Below are positions 1-26,131 of a DNA stretch of 45,171 bases, piece after piece (the stretch's first letter is position 1; every line of letters begins with the position of its first letter). Location of the stretch: the IMG/VR virus record IMGVR_UViG_3300033746_000018; one strand, given 5' to 3'. The position numbers and the translations under genes are program-made. The notes under the pieces are model-generated. The model saw nothing but the letters and a program-made list of their open reading frames with translations, was not told the DNA's origin and made no database searches. Origin of the DNA: a virus.

Positions 1-99
1 AAATATGGGAAGCGGCTTATCCTACCATTAACCGTGCAACTGGTGGTAAAGTTATCGGTATTTCTACTGCTGATAAAGGAACTTTGCACGAAGATATAT
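1..99. repeat. 99-bp exact terminal direct repeat, copy 1 (identical to 45073-45171). This is the overlap signature of a circular or circularly permuted assembly.
   Basis: I compared both ends base by base and the 99-nt string aaatatgggaagcggc...cacgaagatatat is identical. The terL frame is continuous across the junction. Confidence 0.95.
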
Positions 100-989
100 G
101 GCAGAACGCTAAATGGGAGTTTAAAGGGGAAAAAGGTAGCGGTAAAAACTCTTTTACTGGTATGTTTATACCCTGGTATGCTCACCCTGACCGTAATCAG
201 GAATGGTATGACAGGACAGCTGCAGATATTCCTAATTCAGTTAAGAAAGAGTATCCTGCTTCACCTGCCGAAGCGTTTTCTGCTGGTGCTGGGGCTATGT
301 TTCACGAATGGCGACCAGATATTCACATACCTTACGGACAGGACTGGTATCCGCCTTCTAGCTGGCGTATAGTTATGTCTTATGATGGTGGATATAATAG
401 AGCAGCTGCTTGCTGGTATGCTATTTCTCCTGATGGTTGGGCTATTATGTATAGAGAATATTATCCTTTCCACAAAACTGATCCAGAACAGGCCGAAGAT
501 ATACGAATGTTATCAAGAGATCCTAATGGTGTACCTGAACAAATAGATTATATTGTAGCTGATACATCTTGTTGGGCTAAAAATAAGGACACAGGTAAAA
601 CTACAATAGATATTATGGAAGAACACGGGCTAAGACCTTGGCGACAGGCTGACAAAGACAGGATTATGGGTTGGCGAAGATTTCACGAGTTTATTACTCC
701 TATTAAGGACGAGCAGGGAGAATATGTACTTGATAGGAATGGTAAACCTTTATGCAAGTTGAGATTTACTCAAAGCTGTAGTAACACTATCCGTATTTTC
801 CCAGGACTTAAAGTACACCCTCAAAAACCAGACGATTTAGATAGCGGACAAGAGGACCATATTCACGACTCTTTACGCTACTACTGCCTGTCAAGACCAA
901 GACCAAAGATGAATAATAAGACTAGAAAGAAGTTAAGGGAAGCTAGAAAACGCAGGATTAAGCCTATATCATCTTCTACAGGCTATTAA
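1..989 (+). CDS. terL: Terminase large subunit, C-terminal nuclease part. It continues 44457..45171 across the circular junction, giving about 534 aa in total.
   Basis: The frame is open from base 3 and in phase with the ORF ending the window. It has RNaseH-like nuclease-type acidic motifs (SYDGGYN, IVADTSCW, DHIHDSLRYY). Confidence 0.9.
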   Translation, partial: IWEAAYPTINRATGGKVIGISTADKGTLHEDIWQNAKWEFKGEKGSGKNSFTGMFIPWYAHPDRNQEWYDRTAADIPNSVKKEYPASPAEAFSAGAGAMFHEWRPDIHIPYGQDWYPPSSWRIVMSYDGGYNRAAACWYAISPDGWAIMYREYYPFHKTDPEQAEDIRMLSRDPNGVPEQIDYIVADTSCWAKNKDTGKTTIDIMEEHGLRPWRQADKDRIMGWRRFHEFITPIKDEQGEYVLDRNGKPLCKLRFTQSCSNTIRIFPGLKVHPQKPDDLDSGQEDHIHDSLRYYCLSRPRPKMNNKTRKKLREARKRRIKPISSSTGY

Positions 990-999
990 GGAGTCTATT

Positions 1000-1167
1000 A
1001 TGTATGATGATTATGACAGAGATACAGCCCAAATACTTGTTGAATATGCTAAATGCTGCGAAACTCCAGAAGATGACGGGTATATGGCTATGTGGTGTTC
1101 AGTTATCTTTGATTTGACAGCTGCCGAAGGTGTTAGGTTAGTTGAAGCCCTGCATAAAAGGTTGTAA
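1000..1167 (+). CDS. Hypothetical 55-aa protein
   Basis: ATG lies 7 nt after AAGGAG (988-993). The ORF is below the track cutoff and I translated it by hand: MYDDYDRDTAQILVEYAKCCETPEDDGYMAMWCSVIFDLTAAEGVRLVEALHKRL. Confidence 0.5.
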   Translation: MYDDYDRDTAQILVEYAKCCETPEDDGYMAMWCSVIFDLTAAEGVRLVEALHKRL

Positions 1168-1215
1168 ACCGAAGTTTGCAGTTTGCAAATTATTTAATTT
1201 GGTGGTATTCTTAAA

Positions 1216-1389
1216 GTGAGGTGGAAGACAATAGAAGAATTAAGATGTAAAAATTGTAATAAAGTATTGGGAGAAGCCGATTTTGAAGGTGTCATAAAGA
1301 AAAAATGTCCTAGATGTAGCAGTATGAACATATACTTTCAGCGTTTAGGAGGAAAAGTTTACAGATTTTTGGAACATAAAGAAAAATAA
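1216..1389 (+). CDS. Com-like zinc-ribbon protein (57 aa, GTG start)
   Basis: Hand translation gives MRWKTIEELRCKNCNKVLGEADFEGVIKKKCPRCSSMNIYFQ... The CxxC-N17-CPRC spacing resembles the Mu Com family. An intrinsic terminator follows. Confidence 0.55.
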   Translation: MRWKTIEELRCKNCNKVLGEADFEGVIKKKCPRCSSMNIYFQRLGGKVYRFLEHKEK

Positions 1390-1404
1390 TCAAGCGGCTC
1401 AAGC

Positions 1405-1449
1405 AGCCCCTACTATCAGGTAATAACTGGTGGTGGGGGCTTTTTCTAT
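1405..1449 (+). terminator. Rho-independent terminator
   Basis: A 15-bp stem agcccctactatcag / ctggtggtgggggct (with G-U pairs) is followed by tttttctattt. Confidence 0.7.
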
Positions 1450-1479
1450 TTATATAGTATTGTTTTAAGGAGGGTTATT

Positions 1480-1707
1480 ATGCCAATGGGTATGGGACAA
1501 CCACCACAACAACCTGGAGGTCCAGGAATGGCGGCTGGTCCTCAAAACGGAGGACAAATGCAACAGCTGCAGCAAAGATTATCTCAAATGGATCAACAGC
1601 AATTAGTAATGTTAGCTATGCAGCTGATTACTAGATTGCAGCAGGTAGAACAAGCAGGGGCAGGACCACAAGCACCACCACAACAACCACAGCAGCCGAG
1701 AAGGTGA
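1480..1707 (+). CDS. Q/P/G-rich low-complexity microprotein (75 aa) immediately upstream of portal
   Basis: ORF track. RBS is aaggagg. The composition is almost only Q, P, G, M, A and L. Confidence 0.6.
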   Translation: MPMGMGQPPQQPGGPGMAAGPQNGGQMQQLQQRLSQMDQQQLVMLAMQLITRLQQVEQAGAGPQAPPQQPQQPRR

Positions 1708-1711
1708 TTAA

Positions 1712-3643
1712 ATGATTTTTAACCGACCAACTACATTACAGCAGGAAGCAAGCGACTTATTCCAGGAACAAATATCGCTATTTAATCATTTTGACAGTTA
1801 TCGTAGTCAATGGGACGATATGGCGGTTAGATGGTATAAGCAGGTTGTTGGCTATAAAGAAAAATTTAGGGAAAAGGACGAGGAAGAAAATCACAGATCA
1901 GATATTCATATACCTAGAGCCTATCAGATTGTAGATACTATTCGGGCAAGGTATGTAATGGGATTGTTTAAATCTTCGCCCTATATAGATTTTCTGCCTA
2001 AGCCGACAAATTTTGACAGATTTCCTATGAATATGGCAGAAGATAAAGCGAAGGTGGCTGCTTCTTTAGTTAATGAGCAGTTGGATAAAAACAACATAGT
2101 TTCTAAATACTATGATTATATAACTTCTCTATTAATCTTTCCTTTAGGAATTATGGGTGTTGGGTGGCGATACGAGGAAGATTTTGTAAAGAAGAAAGTA
2201 CCAGTACCAGAGATAATCAGAAATCAATTTGGAGTACCTCAATATACAGGTAGGCAGATATATCAAACCAGGCAGAGTAGAGAAGCTGTTTGGGACGATA
2301 ACGAGATAACTAATATAGATTATTTTGATTTTTGGCCTGACCCTAAAGGTACTAACTTAGACGATTGTCGAGGAGTTTTCCAAAGGGAATTTGTTACTAT
2401 AGATCAGTTAAAAAGCAGATTAGAATTTTTAGATTATTTAGATGAAGGTCGTATTTTCCTAAGAGATCTTAAAGAATTACAGGAATTACAAGGTGCAGCC
2501 AACTTAGAACACGGCCGAGATAAAAGAATGTCAGAGATAGGTTTTTCTTCTGGTGATGTTGATATTTTCAGCAACAACGACTATAAGTCTAGCAAAAATT
2601 CAGAATTAGAATTGTTGCACTATTGGGAAGATAACAGGCATTGTATAACAGTCAACAGGCAGAAAACTATTTATGACGGACCTTCTCCTTACTGGCGACA
2701 CAGGAAGAAACCATTTGTAGTAGGCAAATATGACAGATTACCTTCTGAATTTTACGGAATGAGTGCAGTACAGGTCATTTCTGATATTCAGGAAGAAGAA
2801 AACACTCTCCATAATCAGCGTACAGATAATATTAACTTTATTTTAAATAAGATGTGGAAAGTTAGACGAGGGGCAGACATTGACGAGTCCGAATTGGTAT
2901 CAAGACCACACGGAATTATCTATGTTGATCGCCCAGAAGATGTACAAGAATTTGATATGACAGATGTAGCTTCTTCTGCTTTTAATCAGCAGGGTATGTT
3001 GAAAGGTTTAGCTGAAAATGCACTTGCGACTCCACCTGTTATGCAGGGAGCGGAAAGTACAGGCGACCAAACAGCAACAGAAACTATGAAGCAAACATCT
3101 AATGCTGGAATGAGATTTGAAGTTAAGCAAAAAATATTCGAGGAATTGGGTATTAAGCGTTTAGCACACTTAATGGATATGAACAATCAGCAATTTATTG
3201 ATAGCGAAAGGTTAATTAATATTCCGTTTGAACAGGGTAACGCTTGGCGTGCTATTGATACAGGTGATTTAATAGGTGAATTTGATTACAGGCCAGCAGG
3301 AACTAATGTTGATCCTGCAGCTAATAAAGATGTAAGACGAGAACAATTAACTCATATGCTTCAAATGTTATTACAGTCTGGAGTACCATTCGTTAATTAC
3401 AAAGAATTATTTGAAGAATGGTTGAAGGCTTTTGATATAGAAAATGCAGAAAAATTCTTGTTGTCGGACCAGGAAATGGCTATACAGCAAATGCAACAGC
3501 AACAACAGGCTGCTGCAGAGCAGGGAGGTAATAGACCAACAGCTGCCCAGCAGGCTGATAATGCAAGTACAGGTAGAGCAAGAGGAAGAAGGCCACAGAC
3601 TGAAAGAAACCCTAGTCAACAAGCGTCAGGACAGGTGAGATAA
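1712..3643 (+). CDS. Portal protein (643 aa) with a Q-rich, basic C-terminal tail
   Basis: It is the largest ORF directly after terL and before scaffold and capsid, with portal-typical size and position. The family was not verified by search. Confidence 0.75.
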   Translation: MIFNRPTTLQQEASDLFQEQISLFNHFDSYRSQWDDMAVRWYKQVVGYKEKFREKDEEENHRSDIHIPRAYQIVDTIRARYVMGLFKSSPYIDFLPKPTNFDRFPMNMAEDKAKVAASLVNEQLDKNNIVSKYYDYITSLLIFPLGIMGVGWRYEEDFVKKKVPVPEIIRNQFGVPQYTGRQIYQTRQSREAVWDDNEITNIDYFDFWPDPKGTNLDDCRGVFQREFVTIDQLKSRLEFLDYLDEGRIFLRDLKELQELQGAANLEHGRDKRMSEIGFSSGDVDIFSNNDYKSSKNSELELLHYWEDNRHCITVNRQKTIYDGPSPYWRHRKKPFVVGKYDRLPSEFYGMSAVQVISDIQEEENTLHNQRTDNINFILNKMWKVRRGADIDESELVSRPHGIIYVDRPEDVQEFDMTDVASSAFNQQGMLKGLAENALATPPVMQGAESTGDQTATETMKQTSNAGMRFEVKQKIFEELGIKRLAHLMDMNNQQFIDSERLINIPFEQGNAWRAIDTGDLIGEFDYRPAGTNVDPAANKDVRREQLTHMLQMLLQSGVPFVNYKELFEEWLKAFDIENAEKFLLSDQEMAIQQMQQQQQAAAEQGGNRPTAAQQADNASTGRARGRRPQTERNPSQQASGQVR

Positions 3644-3873
3644 TGGACGATAAACAGCGTGAATTAAGAGAAGTTGCGACATTGGCACAGTCAACAGGTT
3701 GGGAATATGTCAAAAAATTTATTGAAAAGCGTATAGGCGTTATTGAAACTGACCTTTTAGAAATGGAAGAACTGGAATTGGTGGAAAGAATAGCGTTGCA
3801 GAAGGAAAGAAAATCGTTGAAATCAGTCTTGCAGTATGTTGAGAAACGATTTAATAAGGCGTTAGAAACTTAG
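3643..3873 (+). CDS. Hypothetical coiled-coil protein (76 aa), head module
   Basis: ORF track. Its start overlaps the portal stop (TAATG). Confidence 0.6.
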   Translation: MDDKQRELREVATLAQSTGWEYVKKFIEKRIGVIETDLLEMEELELVERIALQKERKSLKSVLQYVEKRFNKALET

Positions 3874-3884
3874 GAGGTCAATAA

Positions 3885-5117
3885 ATGGGATTATTCGGTG
3901 AAAATGCTCAAGAGGGTAATGTTAGTGCAGAAAACCCTTTAGGCATTGAGCAAGCCCAGGAACAACCTGGAGAACTTGCTTCGGAAAACGGAAATGAAGG
4001 TAATGTGGAAGGCCAAAGTCAGCAGGCAAGTTTAGAAGATTTAGCACAGCAGGCAGATGGTAAGAAACCAGTTAATCAACAAAAATCGACAGATTATGAC
4101 AGAAAAGTTGATTATGTAAGAGAAAAGTTTAAGTCAGCGGAAGATCCAGCAAAAGAATTTGAAAGAAGTATCAATGAATTAGAACAAAAATTAGGCGTTA
4201 ATGAGCAAAAACAAATATCTAATCCAGAAGAAGCAATTAATTACTATATGGAGTTGGAACAGCGTTTAGGCCAGACTTCTAATGTGGATCAGACCAGACA
4301 GCAGTTAAGTAGATTAGAACAGGAAAATCAAAGATTAAGACAGATGTATTTAATGCAACAACAGCAGGCTATGCAAAACCCGCAAAATATGCAGCAGCCT
4401 AGAAGGGACCCTCAAACCGGCCGATTTGTCAGTCAACAACAGGTAAATAATCAGCAGAACTTTAACCAGCAGAATGTTAATCAACAGCAGCAACCACAAC
4501 AGCCACAGGAAAATACAGGTTTAACTTTAGAAGATGTAATGGCAGACCTTAACTTTGATGTATCAGCTGATGAAGCAATTAATGAACTTTATGAGAAAGG
4601 CTATAATTCTGATGTTTTCAAAAAAGTTGTAGCAGAAACTTCTCTAAAGACAGCTGAAAAATTAGTTGAACAGAAATTTAATGAAATGCAGCAACAAGAA
4701 CAGCAGAAAAAACAGGAAGAACAACAGAGATTGCAACAGGCACAGCAGCTTAACAATAGTTATCGTAGCCAGGTAGATACTATCAAACAGCAGTATGGGG
4801 AACAGGAATTTGAACAGCATAAAGACGATATGCTTAACTTTTTCCAACAATATCCTATGTATTTAGATCCTCAAATGTTTCCGAACGGCTTTGAGATAGC
4901 TTTTAATAATGTCCGAACTATGAATAACCAGTATCAGCAGCAACAGCAGAATATGCAACAGCAACAGCAGTATAATAATGCTCAAAAACAAGCTGCTAGA
5001 ATACCACAATCTCAACATAATAATAAATTGAGATTTCAAAATAATATGAGTCCCGAGGAAGAAATTAGGCAAAACATCTTCCACACGAATGATAAAAGAC
5101 AAGGGATATTTGGCTAG
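3885..5117 (+). CDS. Scaffolding protein candidate (410 aa, extremely Q/N/E-rich, coiled coil)
   Basis: It sits between portal and major capsid, has an AGGAGG RBS and a helical low-complexity composition with poly-Q tracts. Confidence 0.65.
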   Translation: MGLFGENAQEGNVSAENPLGIEQAQEQPGELASENGNEGNVEGQSQQASLEDLAQQADGKKPVNQQKSTDYDRKVDYVREKFKSAEDPAKEFERSINELEQKLGVNEQKQISNPEEAINYYMELEQRLGQTSNVDQTRQQLSRLEQENQRLRQMYLMQQQQAMQNPQNMQQPRRDPQTGRFVSQQQVNNQQNFNQQNVNQQQQPQQPQENTGLTLEDVMADLNFDVSADEAINELYEKGYNSDVFKKVVAETSLKTAEKLVEQKFNEMQQQEQQKKQEEQQRLQQAQQLNNSYRSQVDTIKQQYGEQEFEQHKDDMLNFFQQYPMYLDPQMFPNGFEIAFNNVRTMNNQYQQQQQNMQQQQQYNNAQKQAARIPQSQHNNKLRFQNNMSPEEEIRQNIFHTNDKRQGIFG

Positions 5118-5178
5118 CTGACAGGAATTTTAGGAACACCCTGCGGCAGCCAATAAAATATAAAGGAGTGTAATTAAA

Positions 5179-6387
5179 ATGGCAGTATTAGATTATAACG
5201 GTCGCAATATTTGGACAGGAACAGATGGAACTCCTGTTACTACTTACAATATTGACTCTGACCGCAGGGATATTGATGTATCGAATGATATAGCCCAATT
5301 AATGCCAGAAGCAACACCATTTTTAAGTATTTTAATGAGGGCTAGAAAAGTACCTGTAAATTCAATGGAATTTATTTGGTATGATGAAGAAGAACAAGTT
5401 TGGTGGACTAAGCTAACTGCCAGTTATTTAGCTGGTACAGCACATACAGAAGAAGTTATCTCTTTAGCTGACGCTTCATTTATCAGACCTAAAGACTTGC
5501 TGAAAAACGGATCAACAGGCGAGATTATGTATGTTAAGTCTAAAGCTGGTAATGATGTAACAGTTGAGAGAGGTTATGGTTATGACGCTCAGGCTTCTAG
5601 TGGTACTGACGCTGTAGCTTCAACTGGTACAGATGATAACATTATGAGAATGTCAAATGCTATGGAAGAAAACTCTAATGCACCTGAAACACACGCTACA
5701 CAGCCTAATAAGTTGTGGAATTTGGTACAAACATTCCGTACACCTTTTGACGCTTCAATGGCTAATCAAATTGAAGGAAAGCGTGCAGGAACTGACACTA
5801 GAACTAGACTCAGTAAGATAAAAGCAGTAGAACACCGAATTGATATTGAAAAGCAAATGATGTTTGGTGAAAGATACGAAGATGTATCTAATAAAGTGAG
5901 AATGACTGGTGGACTTATTCAGTTTATCAAGTCCAATGCTTATGATGTAGGAACTACAAACGGAGGTACATTGTCAGAAGCTGAATTTGAAAACTTCTGC
6001 GAAATGGCTTTCGATTGGGGTAGTAAGCGTAAGTTATTCCTGACTTCACCTAGAATTGGTAGTATTATTAATCAATTTGGTGCAAGCAGAATTGAAACTA
6101 CATCTGGCGAGGAAACCTACGGTATGAGATTAAGACGATTAATTTCATTCCACGGTGATGTAATTATCGCAACAACTAAGCTATTCGAGAAAGATTATGC
6201 TCATACAGGCTTAATGCTTGATATTGAGAATATCGACTATCGTCCAGCTGGCGGTAATGACTCTAAGCTAAGAAAGAATATCCAGGAGAATGACAAGTTA
6301 GGCTGGAAAGACGAGTACCTAACAATGGCTGGATTAAGAGTAAGACTGGAAAAAACACACAGTATTTTAACTGGTGTTACAGGCTAA
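5179..6387 (+). CDS. Major capsid protein candidate (402 aa)
   Basis: It follows the scaffold, has a strong RBS and ends at a strong intrinsic terminator. Size is typical of HK97-fold capsid proteins. Confidence 0.75.
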   Translation: MAVLDYNGRNIWTGTDGTPVTTYNIDSDRRDIDVSNDIAQLMPEATPFLSILMRARKVPVNSMEFIWYDEEEQVWWTKLTASYLAGTAHTEEVISLADASFIRPKDLLKNGSTGEIMYVKSKAGNDVTVERGYGYDAQASSGTDAVASTGTDDNIMRMSNAMEENSNAPETHATQPNKLWNLVQTFRTPFDASMANQIEGKRAGTDTRTRLSKIKAVEHRIDIEKQMMFGERYEDVSNKVRMTGGLIQFIKSNAYDVGTTNGGTLSEAEFENFCEMAFDWGSKRKLFLTSPRIGSIINQFGASRIETTSGEETYGMRLRRLISFHGDVIIATTKLFEKDYAHTGLMLDIENIDYRPAGGNDSKLRKNIQENDKLGWKDEYLTMAGLRVRLEKTHSILTGVTG

Positions 6388-6400
6388 TATACAACAGAAT

Positions 6401-6424
6401 AAGGGAGGGTAATTCCTCCCTTTT
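6401..6424 (+). terminator. Rho-independent terminator after the capsid gene
   Basis: aagggagg-gtaatt-cctccctt followed by a T run. Confidence 0.8.
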
Positions 6425-6448
6425 AATTATATCAAGGAGGAAATTAAG

Positions 6449-6793
6449 ATGGCTAAAAGAGGACCTAATGGTAAATTTAGACCAGCTATGGCAGAAAAAC
6501 CAGCAGTATTTGCAAGTGTAGGAAAAGGAACTTGTGGCTTTAGAAATTTAGTTTTAGTTATGGATACAGCAGTAACAAGTAAAGACCCGAATGTTGAGAA
6601 TAAGCGTGGCAGGCGTTTAGAATTTGGACCTGATGGCAAGTTAGAAACTGCAGAAACAGAAGTTATCTCATTTTTAGAATGGAAAGTAAAACACCCTTCT
6701 CCTTTTAGTCGGATCACTAAAATTCAAGAAGAAGTTTACAAAGGTGAAGAAGAAGATAAAGACGAAGATAAAGATAAATCTAAAAAGAAATAA
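6449..6793 (+). CDS. Hypothetical virion-module protein (114 aa) with a KDE-rich tail
   Basis: ORF track. RBS is aaggagg. Confidence 0.65.
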   Translation: MAKRGPNGKFRPAMAEKPAVFASVGKGTCGFRNLVLVMDTAVTSKDPNVENKRGRRLEFGPDGKLETAETEVISFLEWKVKHPSPFSRITKIQEEVYKGEEEDKDEDKDKSKKK

Positions 6794-6809
6794 TTAAAAT
6801 AAAGGACTG

Positions 6810-8756
6810 GTGAGTATGCAGGAATTAAACTGGAATAACGATAACGAACAAAATTTAGAATTTCCAGTCCATTATTGGAATTATATCGAGAAAATGTTTT
6901 CTCAATTTGGTACAGGTGAGCATATTGTCACTAAAGCTTTTGAAGCAGATAATGATTATTTAGGCTTCACAGATGATTATGATTTTTGCTGGGGGCCTCT
7001 TAATGAAGGCGAAGGATTACCAATACAAGTTTATCCTGACAATTGGGAAACCGACCCTGTTACTAAAATAGAATACACCACACAGGATTATGGATATAAC
7101 GAGTATTCGGGCAGGTTATGGGGGGTATATCAAGCAAGTATAGGCGAAATATATCTGCTTAAAGCTAATGAAGAATTAACTGGTTGGGATAGAAATGAAT
7201 TGTTAGCTTTTTCTCCTACAGGGAGTCAAAAACCGACAATAGAGTTTAATCCAGCAGGGCATTATGAAATAGCAGTAGAAATAACAATAGCTGGTACTGG
7301 AGTTAAAGAAATATGGCTAATGAGTTATCCTTATGAAGGAAGTAGTATAAGAAAAATTTGTAACGGCAGCTCGCCAACTTTAGTATTAAATCACAACAAA
7401 GAGTTAGTTTTGTTTTATGGCGATCAAGAACAAACTAATATTTATTATAGATTAGAAAATGAAAGTTATAATACTGAACACAGTATAGACTATATATTTG
7501 AGCCGGAAAGAACTTTAGACTTCATTAATGCTTTTAAAATTGATGAAAAAGAAATAGTTGCAAAACCATACCCAGAGTTTAGCCCTGACCCAATAGAATA
7601 CAGCGGAAAATTAATAGTTTTTTATAAGCGTGATGATGATTATAAACCTTATAAATACACAATAACAGATGAACTTTACAGATATGTATTTAAATATAAA
7701 GAACCTGTTTTAGAGCCTTATTTTGATGATATTATTAATAGCATTGATATAGATGTAAGTAATTTAACCTGGGAAGATATGAGATATTTAATTAATCTAT
7801 TTTCTTCACCAGAAGCAGATATATATATTGAAGGACAGAAAGAGCAGGAAAGCATATCAACAACGTTAAACACAGCAGGTGAAGGTTCAGTTTTAATAAT
7901 ACCATATAATACAGTATATAAACTTGTGTTAGAAAAAGAAGGTATTATAGAGGACAGCTGGGGATTATTAATATTTAACAATGATGAAACTAAAATGATG
8001 GATATAAATGTACCATTTTTAGGTGATGACAGTAAGCCTGTAGAAAATAACAATATAGATATATCAATTAGTAATATTTTGTGGGATTTAGCAGGTATAG
8101 ATTTAAATATACACGCTTTTAATCAGGAGGATTTAACTGATTTATTCGGAACAACAATAACTATAGAAGCACAAAGAGAACAACCTGAATTATCATCTGT
8201 AACAGATAGCACGGGTAATGCTTTATTTACTGATGTAATACCTTATGAAACAGTATATCAGCTTACTGTTGAGGACAGCAGTTTAGGAATAAATAGAGCT
8301 ATAGGATTATTAAATAATTTTACTCCTGGAAGCAGTCAGAATATAGAGTTGCCGTTTATATCTCCTTTTGTAGAAAATAGCAGTATTGATATTTTAACAG
8401 CGGTAGAATGGGAAACAATGTATATTACTACTACTATAACTGTAAAGGATTTAGCTGGAAATTCTATAGATGGTGCTGATATTACTATTGAAGCACAAAG
8501 AGATATGCCAGAGATTAACTTAACTACAGATGTCAACGGTCAGGTAATAGAAGATTTATTGGTTTATGATACAGCATATAATTTTATTATTTCTAAAACA
8601 GGATATGTAGTGGAAGATAATTTATCGCTATTAGTCGAAAATATAGCAAGTAAGGCAAGAAGTGTAGATATGTATATTTCTGACGGAGAGTTTGATAGAT
8701 CAGAAAATAACAGTATAGACATAGTTGTAAATTCAGTATTGTGGCTGGAGGTATAA
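6810..8756 (+). CDS. Tail or adhesin-like protein (648 aa) with three tandem ~109-aa beta-sandwich modules resembling CarboxypepD_reg domains
   Basis: The repeated motifs are IYIEGQKEQ.../ITIEAQREQ.../ITIEAQRDM..., each followed by TDxxG...Y-T-Y. They are separated by four N-SIDI-x5-W linkers. Confidence 0.6.
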   Translation: MSMQELNWNNDNEQNLEFPVHYWNYIEKMFSQFGTGEHIVTKAFEADNDYLGFTDDYDFCWGPLNEGEGLPIQVYPDNWETDPVTKIEYTTQDYGYNEYSGRLWGVYQASIGEIYLLKANEELTGWDRNELLAFSPTGSQKPTIEFNPAGHYEIAVEITIAGTGVKEIWLMSYPYEGSSIRKICNGSSPTLVLNHNKELVLFYGDQEQTNIYYRLENESYNTEHSIDYIFEPERTLDFINAFKIDEKEIVAKPYPEFSPDPIEYSGKLIVFYKRDDDYKPYKYTITDELYRYVFKYKEPVLEPYFDDIINSIDIDVSNLTWEDMRYLINLFSSPEADIYIEGQKEQESISTTLNTAGEGSVLIIPYNTVYKLVLEKEGIIEDSWGLLIFNNDETKMMDINVPFLGDDSKPVENNNIDISISNILWDLAGIDLNIHAFNQEDLTDLFGTTITIEAQREQPELSSVTDSTGNALFTDVIPYETVYQLTVEDSSLGINRAIGLLNNFTPGSSQNIELPFISPFVENSSIDILTAVEWETMYITTTITVKDLAGNSIDGADITIEAQRDMPEINLTTDVNGQVIEDLLVYDTAYNFIISKTGYVVEDNLSLLVENIASKARSVDMYISDGEFDRSENNSIDIVVNSVLWLEV

Positions 8757-8757
8757 A

Positions 8758-10647
8758 ATGAATTTAAACTTTGATTTTGGAATACAGGGTAAAGTTAAAT
8801 ATGAGTTAACTGATACAAGAAACGGAAAAAAAGAAATTATTGAAGAAAATAATATACTTTTGGATAATTATTTGAATAAGTTTTTTACTGGTAATTTTGG
8901 ATTACTTAATGCAAGTGTGTTTAATAGGTGTTATCTTGGAGATAGCAATATAGCACCAACCAGAAGCCAAACAGGACTGCAGGGAAATCAATTAGCGGTT
9001 GTAAATCCTGTAGAAAAAGTAGAAGATAATTTAGGCTTATTAATAAACAATAATAACCAAATAACAAACCTCACAGGACATTCAAATTATGTTTATTCTG
9101 TAGCCTTCTCACCTGACGGCAACTATGTAGTCAGCGGTAGTGATGATAACACAGCAAAGGTGTGGGAGTATGATACAGGTAATGTGATAACAACCTTCAC
9201 AGGACATTCAGATGATGTTCGTTCTGTAGCCTTCTCACCTGACGGTAACTATGTAGTCAGCGGAAGCTGGGATAACACAGCAAAGGTGTGGGAAGTAGCA
9301 ACAGGTAATGTGATAACAACCTTCACAGGACATTCGTATGATGTTTATTCTGTAGCCTTCTCACCTGACGGCAACTATGTAGTCAGCGGAAGCGGGGATA
9401 TCACAGCAAAGGTGTGGGAAGTAGCAACAGGTAATGTGATAACAACCTTCACAGGACATTCAGATGTTGTTTATTCTGTAACCTTCTCACCTGACGGCAA
9501 CTATGTAGTCAGCGGTAGTGATGATAGCACAGTAAAGGTGTGGGAAGTAGCAACAGGTAATGTGATAACAACCTTCACAGGACATTCGTCTGATGTTGAA
9601 TCTGTAGCCTTCTCACCTGACGGTAACTATGTAGTCAGTGGAAGCTGGGATAACACAGCAAAGGTGTGGGAAGTAGCAACAGGTAATGTGATAACAACCT
9701 TCACAGGACATTCGTATGATGTTCGTTCTGTAGCCTTCTCACCTGACGGTAACTATGTAGTCAGTGGAAGCTGGGATAACACAGTAAAGGTGTGGGAAGT
9801 AGCAACAGGTAATGTGATAACAACCTTCACAGGACATTCAGATGATGTTTATTCTGTAGCCTTCTCACCTGACGGTAACTATGTAGTCAGTGGAAGCTGG
9901 GATAACACAGCAAAGGTGTGGGAGTTTAATGATAAACTAATAAACTCTGTCAGGATGGGATATAAGTATAGATTTAATGCAGGCACAGGTACTTCTATGT
10001 TAATAAAAGAAATAGCATTAAGAACAGGAGATTATTCTACAAGTTCATCATATGATGATAGATATAATAATGACTGGGTGGCAAGACAGGTTCCAACTAA
10101 CGCTATAGATAAAAAAGATTATCATCAATTGGATATAACCTGGGTTATAGAAGTTAAAAGTCCAACTATTTATTATACAACTACAATAGCTGACGGGCAA
10201 AGAGATGGTACTTCAATAGATATTGATGTAGAAATAGCAAATAGAGCTTTAGCTGATATATCAAAATTTAATCTTAAATCATTAGATAGTTTTTTCGGAA
10301 TATCAGGTACACCGCAATTTGCATTAGGCACTTCAAATGCTAAGAAATATCCTTTAGGGACTGAAAATATTGAATTAGGCTTATCTTTAGAAGGAACTGA
10401 CATATCAGGCGGATTTATAGCACCATTTGAAGTAACACAAGAACCTTATACAGCTGGTAGTTATTCAAGAACATTTAGGGTAGGTTTAGAGTCAGACCAA
10501 GGCAATCACGCTGACGGTTTGGGAGAAATAATATTAAGGAATAGTGCAGGAGATTATTTCGGTAGAGTGTTATTCACTCCACCACTTGATAAGGTTAACA
10601 CTTATAGATTTTACTTTGATATAACATTTTCCTTAAACCCTAGTTAA
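8758..10647 (+). CDS. Tail-fibre-like protein (629 aa) with an inserted seven-blade WD40 beta-propeller
   Basis: There are seven consecutive 42-aa units FTGHSxxVxSVAFSPDGNYVVSGSxDxTxKVWEVATGNVITT. The flanks show a P2 gpH N-terminal-like pattern (LGDSNIAPTRSQTGLQG ... LIKEIALRTGD). Confidence 0.8.
   Translation: MNLNFDFGIQGKVKYELTDTRNGKKEIIEENNILLDNYLNKFFTGNFGLLNASVFNRCYLGDSNIAPTRSQTGLQGNQLAVVNPVEKVEDNLGLLINNNNQITNLTGHSNYVYSVAFSPDGNYVVSGSDDNTAKVWEYDTGNVITTFTGHSDDVRSVAFSPDGNYVVSGSWDNTAKVWEVATGNVITTFTGHSYDVYSVAFSPDGNYVVSGSGDITAKVWEVATGNVITTFTGHSDVVYSVTFSPDGNYVVSGSDDSTVKVWEVATGNVITTFTGHSSDVESVAFSPDGNYVVSGSWDNTAKVWEVATGNVITTFTGHSYDVRSVAFSPDGNYVVSGSWDNTVKVWEVATGNVITTFTGHSDDVYSVAFSPDGNYVVSGSWDNTAKVWEFNDKLINSVRMGYKYRFNAGTGTSMLIKEIALRTGDYSTSSSYDDRYNNDWVARQVPTNAIDKKDYHQLDITWVIEVKSPTIYYTTTIADGQRDGTSIDIDVEIANRALADISKFNLKSLDSFFGISGTPQFALGTSNAKKYPLGTENIELGLSLEGTDISGGFIAPFEVTQEPYTAGSYSRTFRVGLESDQGNHADGLGEIILRNSAGDYFGRVLFTPPLDKVNTYRFYFDITFSLNPS
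9067..9948 (+). repeat. Seven tandem 126-bp near-identical direct repeats encoding the WD40 blades
   Basis: Unit starts are at 9067, 9193, 9319, 9445, 9571, 9697 and 9823. Units 2 and 6 differ at about 5 of 126 nt. Confidence 0.95.
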
Positions 10648-24351: not shown

Positions 24352-24530
24352 AGTTAGTTAAGGATTGGTTAGATTTATTTATGGATAATGATTTTCAGCA
24401 AGACTTAGTGTTTTTGCTAATCGTTTTTATAGGCAAAATAACAGGCATATTTGATGAGAATACATTTACTACTTTAGCGGTAGTAATAATAGGTGGTGAT
24501 GCCGTAAAAAAGTTAGGAGCAAAGAAATGA
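24348..24530 (+). CDS. Holin candidate (60 aa, two hydrophobic segments, basic C-terminus)
   Basis: ATGA overlap with the endolysin stop. Segments are LVFLLIVFIGKITGIF and LAVVIIGGDAV, followed by KKLGAKK. Confidence 0.6.
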   Translation: MKLVKDWLDLFMDNDFQQDLVFLLIVFIGKITGIFDENTFTTLAVVIIGGDAVKKLGAKK

Positions 24531-24895
24531 GCCTATCTATCAGCAGAGATTTAAGCAATTTGACACCAGAGCAGCAAATAGTTGTAGAAAATATAGCGAA
24601 AGCAAACAGAATACTCAAAGATTATGCAGATAGTTTAGATCGTGAGGAATTGCCTATGTGGCTAACTCAATTAATAATAAGGGTATTTACGAAAGGAGAT
24701 GAAGATTTCATGAATGAAGCTGTTTTAGTTTTTTTGAAAACCGTGATGGAGGAAACAACTTTAGAAGATGTAGTTTACAAAAAGGCTGCTGACGCTATGA
24801 AAGAAACCATACCTGGCACACAGTATGAGCCTATTATCGGCGAAATTATGGTCGGATTGGGTACAGAACTTAAAAAGCCTGAACAAGTTAAATAG
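24527..24895 (+). CDS. Hypothetical protein (122 aa), last gene of the late operon
   Basis: ORF track. ATGA overlap with the holin. A terminator follows. Confidence 0.6.
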   Translation: MSLSISRDLSNLTPEQQIVVENIAKANRILKDYADSLDREELPMWLTQLIIRVFTKGDEDFMNEAVLVFLKTVMEETTLEDVVYKKAADAMKETIPGTQYEPIIGEIMVGLGTELKKPEQVK

Positions 24896-24905
24896 ATATA
24901 AAAAA

Positions 24906-24940
24906 AGCCCTACACTTAAAAAATGTGGGGCTTTCCATTT
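24906..24940 (+). terminator. Rho-independent terminator ending the late operon
   Basis: agccctaca / tgtggggct stem followed by tttccattt. Confidence 0.65.
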
Positions 24941-24967
24941 GCAATTAAGATTTAAAAGTAGTATAAT
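24939..24967 (+). promoter_or_regulatory. Sigma-A/sigma-70-type promoter TTGCAA-17-TATAAT
   Basis: The -35 is at 24939-24944 and the -10 at 24962-24967. The extended context TTGCAATTAA...TATAATAAT is shared with the promoter at 39689. Confidence 0.6.
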
Positions 24968-25209
24968 AATTTTAACATAATAATATATTTGTACCGAATA
25001 CATTTTCGGTGGGGTGAAGCTGGTATCTTTGCCCCTTAAAATTTAGAAAATTAAAAATTACATATAGAAAAAGAAAATCCGCTCAGCACTACAAATGCTA
25101 GCGGGTTGACTGCTACTTCTCGCACAAGTAACAGATTTTTTGTTAAGTTAATTATACCAAAATCAAGCTAACTTAGCAAATGAATTACATAAAATCTGTA
25201 GAAATTTTA

Positions 25210-25241
25210 AGGACTTGTCGGGAAACTGGCAGGTCCTTTTT
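25210..25241 (+). terminator. Rho-independent terminator with a GAAA tetraloop
   Basis: aggacttgtcgg-gaaa-ctggcaggtcct followed by ttttt. With the promoter at 24939 it delimits a non-coding transcript of about 270 nt. Confidence 0.75.
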
Positions 25242-25289
25242 GTGTTTGTAGAACAAAAAGGTTAGTGGTTAAGGAATAACACTATTATA

Positions 25290-25600
25290 AAAAACTGGTA
25301 GGCTGGTCGTCCTATCTTCAAAAACAGACTTTTCGTAATAAAACCGCTCCAGGGATTGTAATTTCAGCAATCTATTCTGTAGCACTCTTGTAGTGTGGGG
25401 ACTGGAATACAGCGGACACCCCCTTCCTGTTACCTTTACGGTAGGGTGTTGGTGCAAACAGGTGAAACTCCTGTAGGGCGTTAAGGCAGAAGCGAAGCCC
25501 TTAGAGCATTGCCGTAAGGCCTGTGTCGATACCTCGCTTCGGGGTTAAGATGTACCCGTAAACACAGAACACCTCTTTTGCACAAGGGGTGTTCTATATC
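25290..25600 (+). ncRNA. Candidate structured non-coding RNA of unidentified class. Strand is tentative.
   Basis: By my count G+C is about 53 percent over 25381-25560, against about 23 percent at 25021-25080. Hairpins are dense, including GCC-GUAA-GGC, ACAGG-UGAAACU-CCUGU, the long-range CTGTGT/ACACAG pair (25521/25562) and an 11-bp terminal stem at 25568-25596. There is no credible ORF. Confidence 0.35.
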
Positions 25601-25699
25601 AAATTTTGCCGTACTTCAAGGTTAAGCTGTTCAATTCAAGTTCTTTATAATAAGGATAACTAGATAACTTTTACACTTTTAATGAAAGGAGAATAGAAA

Positions 25700-26131
25700 A
25701 TGAAAGTTACAATTTACTTGTATGCTAATAAACGCATATATACTGCTGTTTTAGTCGCTGATAATAAAAAACAAAGTATTAAAAATATAGGGCAAAAAAA
25801 TAAAGGTGAAAGTATAATGCAAAACTACATTATAGCGGCTTTAAAAGCATTAAGAACATTAAAATTTCCTGTTGATATACACATAATTAGTCCTAGAAAT
25901 TCTTTTAAAATGTTACCTGGCATTGAAGAAAAAATACCTAAACAAGATTTTGTAGAAGAAAACTTAGAAAAATGGATAGAAATAAGTGATCTAATTAAAA
26001 AACATAAAAGTTATAAAGCCAACAAACATAATGACAATAAAAATTTAAAAAGTAAATGGCATTATTATAGAAAGTCTATGGTTACTTCTAAAGATAATCC
26101 AAATATAGATAAAATGGATAGTTTATTTTAA
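25700..26131 (+). CDS. Hypothetical K/N-rich protein (143 aa) with a possible degenerate RNase H-like fold
   Basis: ORF track. RBS is aaggag. The secondary-structure-like order VTIYLYA / IYTAVLV / NYIIAALKAL / VDIHIIS loosely mirrors RNase HI, but without the acidic catalytic residues. Confidence 0.6.
   Translation: MKVTIYLYANKRIYTAVLVADNKKQSIKNIGQKNKGESIMQNYIIAALKALRTLKFPVDIHIISPRNSFKMLPGIEEKIPKQDFVEENLEKWIEISDLIKKHKSYKANKHNDNKNLKSKWHYYRKSMVTSKDNPNIDKMDSLF

Follow-up and report, generated by a model that had tools for sequence, protein, structure and literature searches.

Among described systems, the closest to the locus analysed here is the EGFOA motif (RF02955), a catalogued orphan RNA that is credited to Weinberg et al. 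2017 (PMC5737381) by bioRxiv 10.64898/2026.07.01.735769. According to the same preprint, two EGFOA members solved by cryo-EM form RNA-only homo-oligomers, as a trimer or a strand-exchanged dimer. The present locus is an island in a phage genome, which an earlier note had taken for a candidate large structured RNA at 25290-25600, either of the ROOL or GOLLD kind or new. Positions are those of the window, which is the whole 45,171-nt stretch of DNA that was analysed (IMG/VR record IMGVR_UViG_3300033746_000018). The window RNA is like ROOL and GOLLD in that all are phage-borne, GC-enriched, hairpin-dense orphan RNAs; however, neither of the two models matches it at E<=10, it is much shorter, and no common motifs were seen. 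The HEARO, OLE, raiA and riboswitch models, which the note had also suggested, likewise gave no match even at E<=10 in the region 24850-25750, and at ~345 nt the RNA falls below the sizes of the "large ornate" RNAs. Nor does the element appear to be wholly new, as its core looks like a divergent relative of EGFOA, a family that the note had not named. On the sequence comparisons set out below, it is probable that the RNA is an EGFOA variant, larger than the known type and strongly diverged from it, which is carried as an accessory cassette.

The window is the complete or nearly complete ~45 kb genome of an uncultured short-tailed phage. Its genes include those for a portal protein, an M15 endolysin and Mu Gam, among others, and for a 2494-aa virion protein with a ParB-like domain; no close relative of the genome was found among the GenBank phages. 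The island is held in a gene-free gap of 800 nt (24896-25699), positioned at a phage module junction (late/early) with the lysis genes on one side and the next operon on the other. The terminator upstream of the island, which had been assigned to an sRNA, is real (25209-25238); it closes a small upstream transcription unit and forms the left limit of the RNA gene. The features of the locus are given in Table 1.

The G+C content of the island, put earlier at about 53% over 25381-25560, was recomputed as 0.533 (53.3%), which is the maximum among all 180-nt windows of the 45-kb genome (mean 0.35, sd 0.052). Over 25290-25600 it is 0.476, a value reached by only 0.02% of 311-nt windows, and in the spacer downstream of the island (25601-25699) it is 0.273. 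A second G+C peak, at 1480-1708, corresponds to a small Gln/Pro/Gly-rich ORF just upstream of the portal gene, and the region 1500-1700 was accordingly rejected as a second RNA element. Compared with shuffled sequence, the folding energy of the island is nothing unusual (z = -0.89 for the plus strand, -1.12 for the minus strand), so that the evidence for an RNA is comparative and not thermodynamic. ARAGORN reported 0 tRNA or tmRNA genes in the window.

Relatives of the RNA were found in IMG/VR (G001/L017, L002 and L016) and in JGI metagenome contigs (L086, L089, L101 and, as an incomplete copy, L088). Together they make up only four haplotypes, effectively three lineages, which keeps the covariation counts small. 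The window and G001 have 86% identity in the RNA, compared with 96-98.7% in the genes and spacers around it. The four haplotypes were scored against a curated structure with 92 pairs in 17 helices, one pseudoknot included. Standard pairs were formed in 100% of 366 cells, compensatory double changes were present at 6 pairs in six different helices, and 8 pairs had one-sided changes that were G-U compatible. In a control in which the 3' partners were shifted by 1-3 columns, 38-48% of the cells were paired, with 0 compensatory changes. With a second pseudoknot (PK2) and helix T included, each of which has one compensatory pair as support, the model comes to 95 pairs in 18 helices, 100% paired in 379 cells, with 7 compensatory pairs; over the two models, the shifted controls range from 37 to 48% paired, with 0 compensatory changes. 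In terms of the covariation check that had been proposed for homologous regions, 95/95 pairs are kept. About 13 G-U pairs of the model would become A-C mismatches on the opposite strand, and every one-sided change is compatible with G-U pairing on the plus strand but not on the minus strand. Both observations fit only the plus strand, which is therefore taken as the RNA strand.

The minus-strand ORF that overlaps the island had been dismissed as spurious, and the relatives bear this out: no ORF >30 aa remains at its place in variant B, and within it the variants differ by indels of 1 and 2 nt. Conserved pairing, strand-specific G-U pairs, the lost ORF and the indels together identify the island as a plus-strand structured RNA, as had been proposed from the single sequence. 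To the extent that comparison of the four haplotypes can decide, the island is the gene for a folded non-coding RNA, neither a coding remnant nor a cluster of DNA hairpins. The conserved RNA runs to ~25601, and on the left it extends beyond the 25290 given before, to ~25257-25263, where hairpin H0 is found.

The helices drawn in the earlier note are all present, with coordinates exact or 1-2 nt off, and are kept in every relative. Three of them (GGUAGG/CCUAUC, ACAGG/CCUGU and CUGUGU/ACACAG) have compensatory double changes; GAUUG/CAAUC lies within 25353-25373, ACACCC/GGGUGU at 25416-25449 encloses UACC/GGUA, and the terminal stem is found at 25567/8-25594. All pairs of the EGFOA-type core are retained in the four haplotypes. 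Outside the core, H0 has a compensatory change of U-A to A-U in L002, the P5 domain has two compensatory pairs, and P9 retains 10/10 pairs, with a C-G to U-G change. For the 5' strand of H1 there are two possible partners, 25311-25316 and the tail of the RNA (helix T); both pairings are complete and each has a compensatory change, helix T being paired throughout in all haplotypes. Complementarities of 7 nt between a 5' segment and the tail after the terminal hairpin were also noticed by eye in L104 and L107, and are individually not significant. A pairing between CGCUUC in P8 and the P4 loop was considered and rejected, as by eye it is not conserved in variant B.

Table 1. The RNA gene, its structural elements and its borders (window coordinates; the RNA is read from the plus strand)
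Feature	Position	Strand	Description
Last late gene	24527-24895		Left border of the gap; plus-strand genes resume after the gap
Upstream intrinsic terminator	25209..25246	+	13-bp stem, GAAA loop, T-run; kept in sister phage L085
Swap slot	25257..26129		Replaced by ~360 nt with a canonical EGFOA in L085 and L087
H0 hairpin	25263..25284	+	Stem 25263-67 with 25280-84, loop GUUAAGGAAUAA
62-aa ORF, spurious	25269..25457	-	Absent in variant B; indels between variants inside the ORF
A-rich linker AUUAUAAAAAACU	25285..25296	+	Between H0 and H1
Helix T	25296-25300 with 25597-25601	+	Alternative partner for the H1 5' strand
H1 hairpin, GGUAGG/CCUAUC	25297..25316	+	Loop CUGGUCGU; U-A to C-G in variant B
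PK2 5' strand, UUCG	25332..25335	+	Pairs with 25493-25496 of the P4 loop
P5 domain	25344..25415	+	Closing helix 25344-48 with 25411-15, CCAG/CUGG, hairpins 25353-73 and 25376-25401
EGFOA-like core	25416..25510	+	P1a, PK1 strand, P1, P2, P3, P4, P4 loop
P1a	25416-21 with 25444-49	+	Core helix
PK1 5' strand	25423-30	+	C25427 bulged; pairs with the P4 loop
P1	25431-34 with 25440-43	+	Core hairpin
P2	25451-55 with 25506-10	+	Core helix
P3	25458-62 with 25470-74	+	Core helix; compensatory change present
P4	25475-79 with 25497-501	+	Core helix; 17-nt loop 25480-96
3' domain	25511..25567	+	P6, P7, P8
P6, GCC-GUAA-GGC	25511-25520	+	3' domain
P7, long-range	25521-26 with 25562-67	+	G-C to A-U in variants B and C
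P8	25531-36 with 25540-45	+	One-sided, G-U compatible changes
Terminal hairpin P9 and tail CUAUAUCA	25568..25601	+	P9 is 25568-77 with 25584-93

At the gathering score, a search of the whole window against Rfam gave no match. Of the 22 weak matches obtained at E<=10 in the region 24850-25750, the one with the best E-value was EGFOA, on the plus strand at 25405-25513, with 22.4 bits (E 0.12) against a gathering score of 37.7. The alignment spans model positions 1-108, that is, the whole model, with P1-P4 formed. EGFOA was not reported for variant B at E<=5, and an Rfam family search on the relatives G001-G003 found nothing. A covariance model of the window-type core (R1) did not retrieve the canonical EGFOAs, its matches being biased 15-mer loci. 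Given the low score, the loss of conserved nucleotides described below and the failed reciprocal model, the RNA is filed here as an EGFOA-related variant and not as an ordinary member.

The likeness is clearest at the level of architecture. For comparison, four bona fide EGFOAs were used (L085, L104/L108, L106 and L107). The window RNA shares with them its setting as a plus-strand orphan RNA in an unusually large gene-free region. As in EGFOA, its P1 hairpin is placed within an internal loop, flanked by a pyrimidine-rich 5' strand on one side and by AGG on the other. The P2/P3/P4 three-way junction has the same joints, with 2, 0 and 4 nt for P2-P3, P3-P4 and P4-P2, and the same 17-nt P4 loop, starting GUnAnG and pseudoknotted with two upstream strands. 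In the first of these pseudoknots (PK1), positions 7-12 of the P4 loop pair with the strand that immediately precedes P1, leaving one C bulged. This pairing reads GUC(C)UAG/CUAGAC in two of the EGFOAs and GUC(C)CAG/CUGGAC in the other two. In the window it reads UUC(C)UGU/GCAGAA, with 6/6 pairs, and falls exactly at the positions aligned by the Rfam model, which is blind to pseudoknots. All 6/6 pairs are thus formed in the window type, L085, L104, L106 and L107, with three sequence solutions; by our own estimate, from random 6-mers with G-U allowed, 6/6 pairs would arise by chance with a probability of ~0.003. In variants B and C, a seventh pair has U-G in place of C-G. It is from the sequences of the EGFOAs and the window type that we infer the PK1 of EGFOA here. 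The PK2 partner of loop positions 13-17 in the EGFOAs is CCCAG, CCAG or CUCAG, located upstream. The register of PK2 in the window type is shifted by one position relative to the EGFOAs, and one of its pairs changes from U-A to C-G in variants B and C.

The differences are equally plain. The upstream strands of the two pseudoknots are 10-25 nt apart in the EGFOAs and 88 nt apart in the window type, where the P5 insertion of 72 nt, with two hairpins, lies between them; at this site the canonical EGFOAs have a small variable hairpin or nothing, in only 10-25 nt. In sequence, PK1 of the window differs from the family's GUC(C)YAG/CURGAC, and its PK2 is UUCG/CGAA in place of CCCAG/CUGGG. The most conserved nucleotides of the family (CCGUC and GCUAGACCUGG) are not retained in the window type, which carries CCUUCCUGU and GUUAAGGCAGAAGCGAA at the EGFOA-conserved CCGUC..UAG and GUAAAGCUAGACCUgGG. 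Unlike EGFOA, the window RNA also has an extra helix, P1a, and a 3' domain of its own, and it is conserved over ~345 nt compared with the 108 nt of the Rfam model.

Outside the core, the resemblance extends to the 5' leader (H0, linker and H1), which is recognisable in L104 at the EGFOA locus; this phage has 48% G+C and otherwise no relation to the window phage. The loops are common to the two leaders and the stems differ. When the leader (25266-25311) was compared by blastn with 834 kb of unrelated loci, the best match was to L104/L108 (E 0.025), and it lies 29 nt upstream of the L104/L108 EGFOA core. Hairpins like H0, with a similarly purine-rich loop on different stems, are found in L104, L085 and L107. 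The linker piece AUAAAAAACUG is common to the window RNA and the L104 locus, AUAAAAUAACC is present in L085 and L107, and the H1 loop motif CUGGnnGU recurs in L104 on a different stem. The canonical EGFOA loci themselves share sequence beyond the 108-nt model (L085 4770-5075, L104 575-870 and L107 8890-9170): L085 and L107 have GCCGUUAGAGGG 5' of the core, L085 and L104 have a long 3' hairpin (AGUUAU...GGGAUAACUA), and all three have a terminal hairpin with CC/GG adjoining the loop. Natural canonical EGFOA RNAs are probably ~300 nt long.

No match was obtained by blastn with the island, or with three canonical EGFOA loci, against 50,697 GenBank phages. Scanning IMG/VR with the P4-loop 15-mer gave 82 loci, all of which, except the known relatives, are coding sequences encoding VKAEA. 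Scans of IMG/VR with the two-loop, 5'-leader and GCCGUUAGAGGG patterns returned only the known relatives, L104/L108, L107, and L111 and L112, which are two further truncated loci of the window type. A pattern scan of genome contigs gave a single match, in an Acidimicrobiia MAG, which was discarded as chance. A search anchored on the downstream protein yielded only one close relative.

How the RNA is carried can be seen from two sister phages, L085 and L087, which were retrieved via the neighbouring 122-aa protein and are 94-98% identical to the window on either side of the slot. BLAST homology between them and the window ends at 25292 and restarts at 26130; by local alignment, the sequences diverge from ~25257 onwards. 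In place of the intervening DNA, both sisters have a bona fide EGFOA (59.3 bits) on the same strand as the window RNA. Three states of the slot can be distinguished: the window-type RNA with a 143-aa gene (window, L002, L016 and L089), the window-type RNA with a different, Cys-rich gene (G001, L086 and L101), and a canonical EGFOA alone (L085 and L087). In the second state only the gene part is replaced (25702-26110).

The 143-aa gene (window 25700-26131) is absent from L085 and L087, and in G001, L086 and L101 an unrelated ORF of ~107 aa, rich in Lys and Cys, takes its place (L086 5166-5490). The spacer between RNA and gene (25634-25699), with a TATAAT and a ribosome-binding site, is retained despite the replacement of the gene downstream. 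In L101, RNA variant B stands beside a divergent (52% identical) upstream 122-aa gene, a combination that points to mosaic exchange around the slot. No island was found in L092-L099, where the neighbouring 122-aa protein is ~52% identical.

The EGFOAs of other phages also lie at module junctions and are oriented as the operon that follows. In L107 the order is giant ORF, endolysin, EGFOA and DNA polymerase, and in L104 it is EGFOA, terminase and portal; the EGFOA of L106 is found between SbcCD and tail genes. The order in L107, an unrelated phage of 38% G+C, is the same as in the window, with a giant ORF of >2458 aa, an endolysin, the EGFOA and replication genes in 6-9320. The two giant ORFs, each lying 5' of the RNA in its own genome, have no similarity by BLASTP.

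As to the ends of the transcript, no sigma-70-type promoter was called between 25246 and 25263, directly upstream of H0, and read-through into the RNA from a promoter at 24939-24967 is possible. There is no canonical terminator after the RNA; P9 was not called as one, as no T-run directly follows it. In L107, a promoter that matches the consensus perfectly (8722-8750) precedes the EGFOA core by 225 nt, and in L104 a promoter-like site immediately precedes H0. A transcript of the L107 EGFOA would begin at the 8722-8750 promoter, and its leader opens with a ACCGAAUA hairpin; a hairpin resembling it follows the promoter at 24939-24967 in the window. Read on the minus strand, the linker and H1 (25285-25316) form a hairpin followed by a U-run. 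The same linker-hairpin arrangement is seen in L085 and L107, and in L104 it was called as a minus-strand terminator (617-634). The linker and H1 may therefore also stop antisense transcription.

Several other explanations of the locus have to be set against that of an enlarged EGFOA variant. An unrelated new class of structured RNA might occupy the EGFOA slot, its core resembling EGFOA by convergence or chance, which would sit well with the sub-threshold Rfam score, the lack of a match in variant B, the failure of the reciprocal core model on the canonical EGFOAs and the conserved nucleotides that are not retained. We regard this as unlikely, in that it leaves to coincidence the joint lengths and the 17-nt P4 loop, which are identical to those of EGFOA, as well as the 6/6 PK1 pairs at model-aligned positions with their chance estimate of ~0.003, the use of adjoining loop positions by PK2, and a 5' leader that recurs at a true EGFOA locus in an unrelated phage. 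The main rival is of another kind, namely that the RNA is a cis-acting leader (an attenuator, a riboswitch-like sensor or a processing site) of the plus-strand early operon that starts from 25700. Its orientation is always that of the downstream genes, no canonical terminator follows P9, and the H1 5' strand can pair in two ways. In L107, the consensus promoter precedes the core by 225 nt, and there is no terminator between the RNA and the DNA polymerase gene. However, the first gene downstream may be the 143-aa gene, the Cys-rich gene, a DNA polymerase gene, a terminase gene or none, the more distant phages of the group express the region without the element, a TATAAT stands between RNA and gene, and two very different alleles precede the same downstream genes. 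A leader function thus seems quite unlikely.

The remaining two explanations do without an RNA. The position at a late/early junction, in a gene-free hub of 800 bp, and the recombination breakpoint between the sister phages at the island could mark a replication origin, a packaging site or a recombination hotspot, with the hairpins formed in DNA. Against this, ~13 of the pairs are G-U and would be A-C mismatches on the other strand, the one-sided changes are G-U compatible on the plus strand only, and the canonical allele belongs to a family with members solved as RNA (bioRxiv 10.64898/2026.07.01.735769), so that we consider a DNA-level element very unlikely. That the island is a decayed protein-coding remnant, the case that the earlier note had named as contrary to its proposal, is hardly credible: the 62-aa minus-strand ORF does overlap the island, but it is unconserved, being lost in variant B and interrupted by indels of 1-2 nt between the variants, and the substitutions track base-pairing and not codon positions.

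Under the favoured reading, the gene at ~25257-25601 would produce a plus-strand non-coding RNA of ~345 nt, compact and doubly pseudoknotted, as an EGFOA variant. The RNA would be a stable structural RNA that acts in trans, rather than the leader of one gene, since the downstream genes differ or are absent among the carriers, distant phages lack the RNA, and the same genomic context is served by either of two very different alleles. With two EGFOAs known to be oligomeric by cryo-EM, it is plausible by analogy that the window RNA also self-assembles into small oligomers. Its sequence evolves several times faster than the surroundings, with the tertiary pairings conserved, and this structure-preserving divergence, along with the exchange of the cassette, offers a hint of an accessory role in phage-host or phage-phage interplay. 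Each of the slot alleles has its own self-consistent pseudoknot and terminal pairings. It is conceivable, as a distinctly improbable extension, that the two EGFOA-class alleles are kept apart by selection, with the RNA serving as a specificity determinant or a decoy in conflict. If intermolecular pairing drives assembly, as in the cryo-EM dimer, each allele would form only its own oligomers, and, were selection of this kind at work, the alternative between H1 and helix T would be a switch between monomer and assembly.

If the assignment to EGFOA is right, the Rfam model captures only part of the class, the RNA conserved at this locus is ~3x longer than the 108-nt motif, and the double-pseudoknot architecture survives near-complete replacement of the "conserved" nucleotides. 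The RNA behaves as an accessory cassette that is exchanged at the late/early junction between phages which are near-identical elsewhere. The natural allelic series, in which the window variant is represented by three lineages of uncultured phages, should be a useful entry to structure work, where the co-varying pseudoknots give tertiary restraints, and to tests of function such as allele swaps and deletions.

Further signals were noted upstream of the RNA gene. On the minus strand, a strong promoter (25179 to 25151, TTGCTA-17-TATAAT with TG) is directed into the upstream gene-free region, where, by eye, a hairpin followed by a U-run at ~25076-25100 could terminate an antisense RNA of ~85 nt. 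On the plus strand, a hairpin and U-run were likewise judged by eye at ~25108-25145. With these promoter and hairpin/U-run signals at 25060-25180, the 800-nt gap seems to contain several small units.
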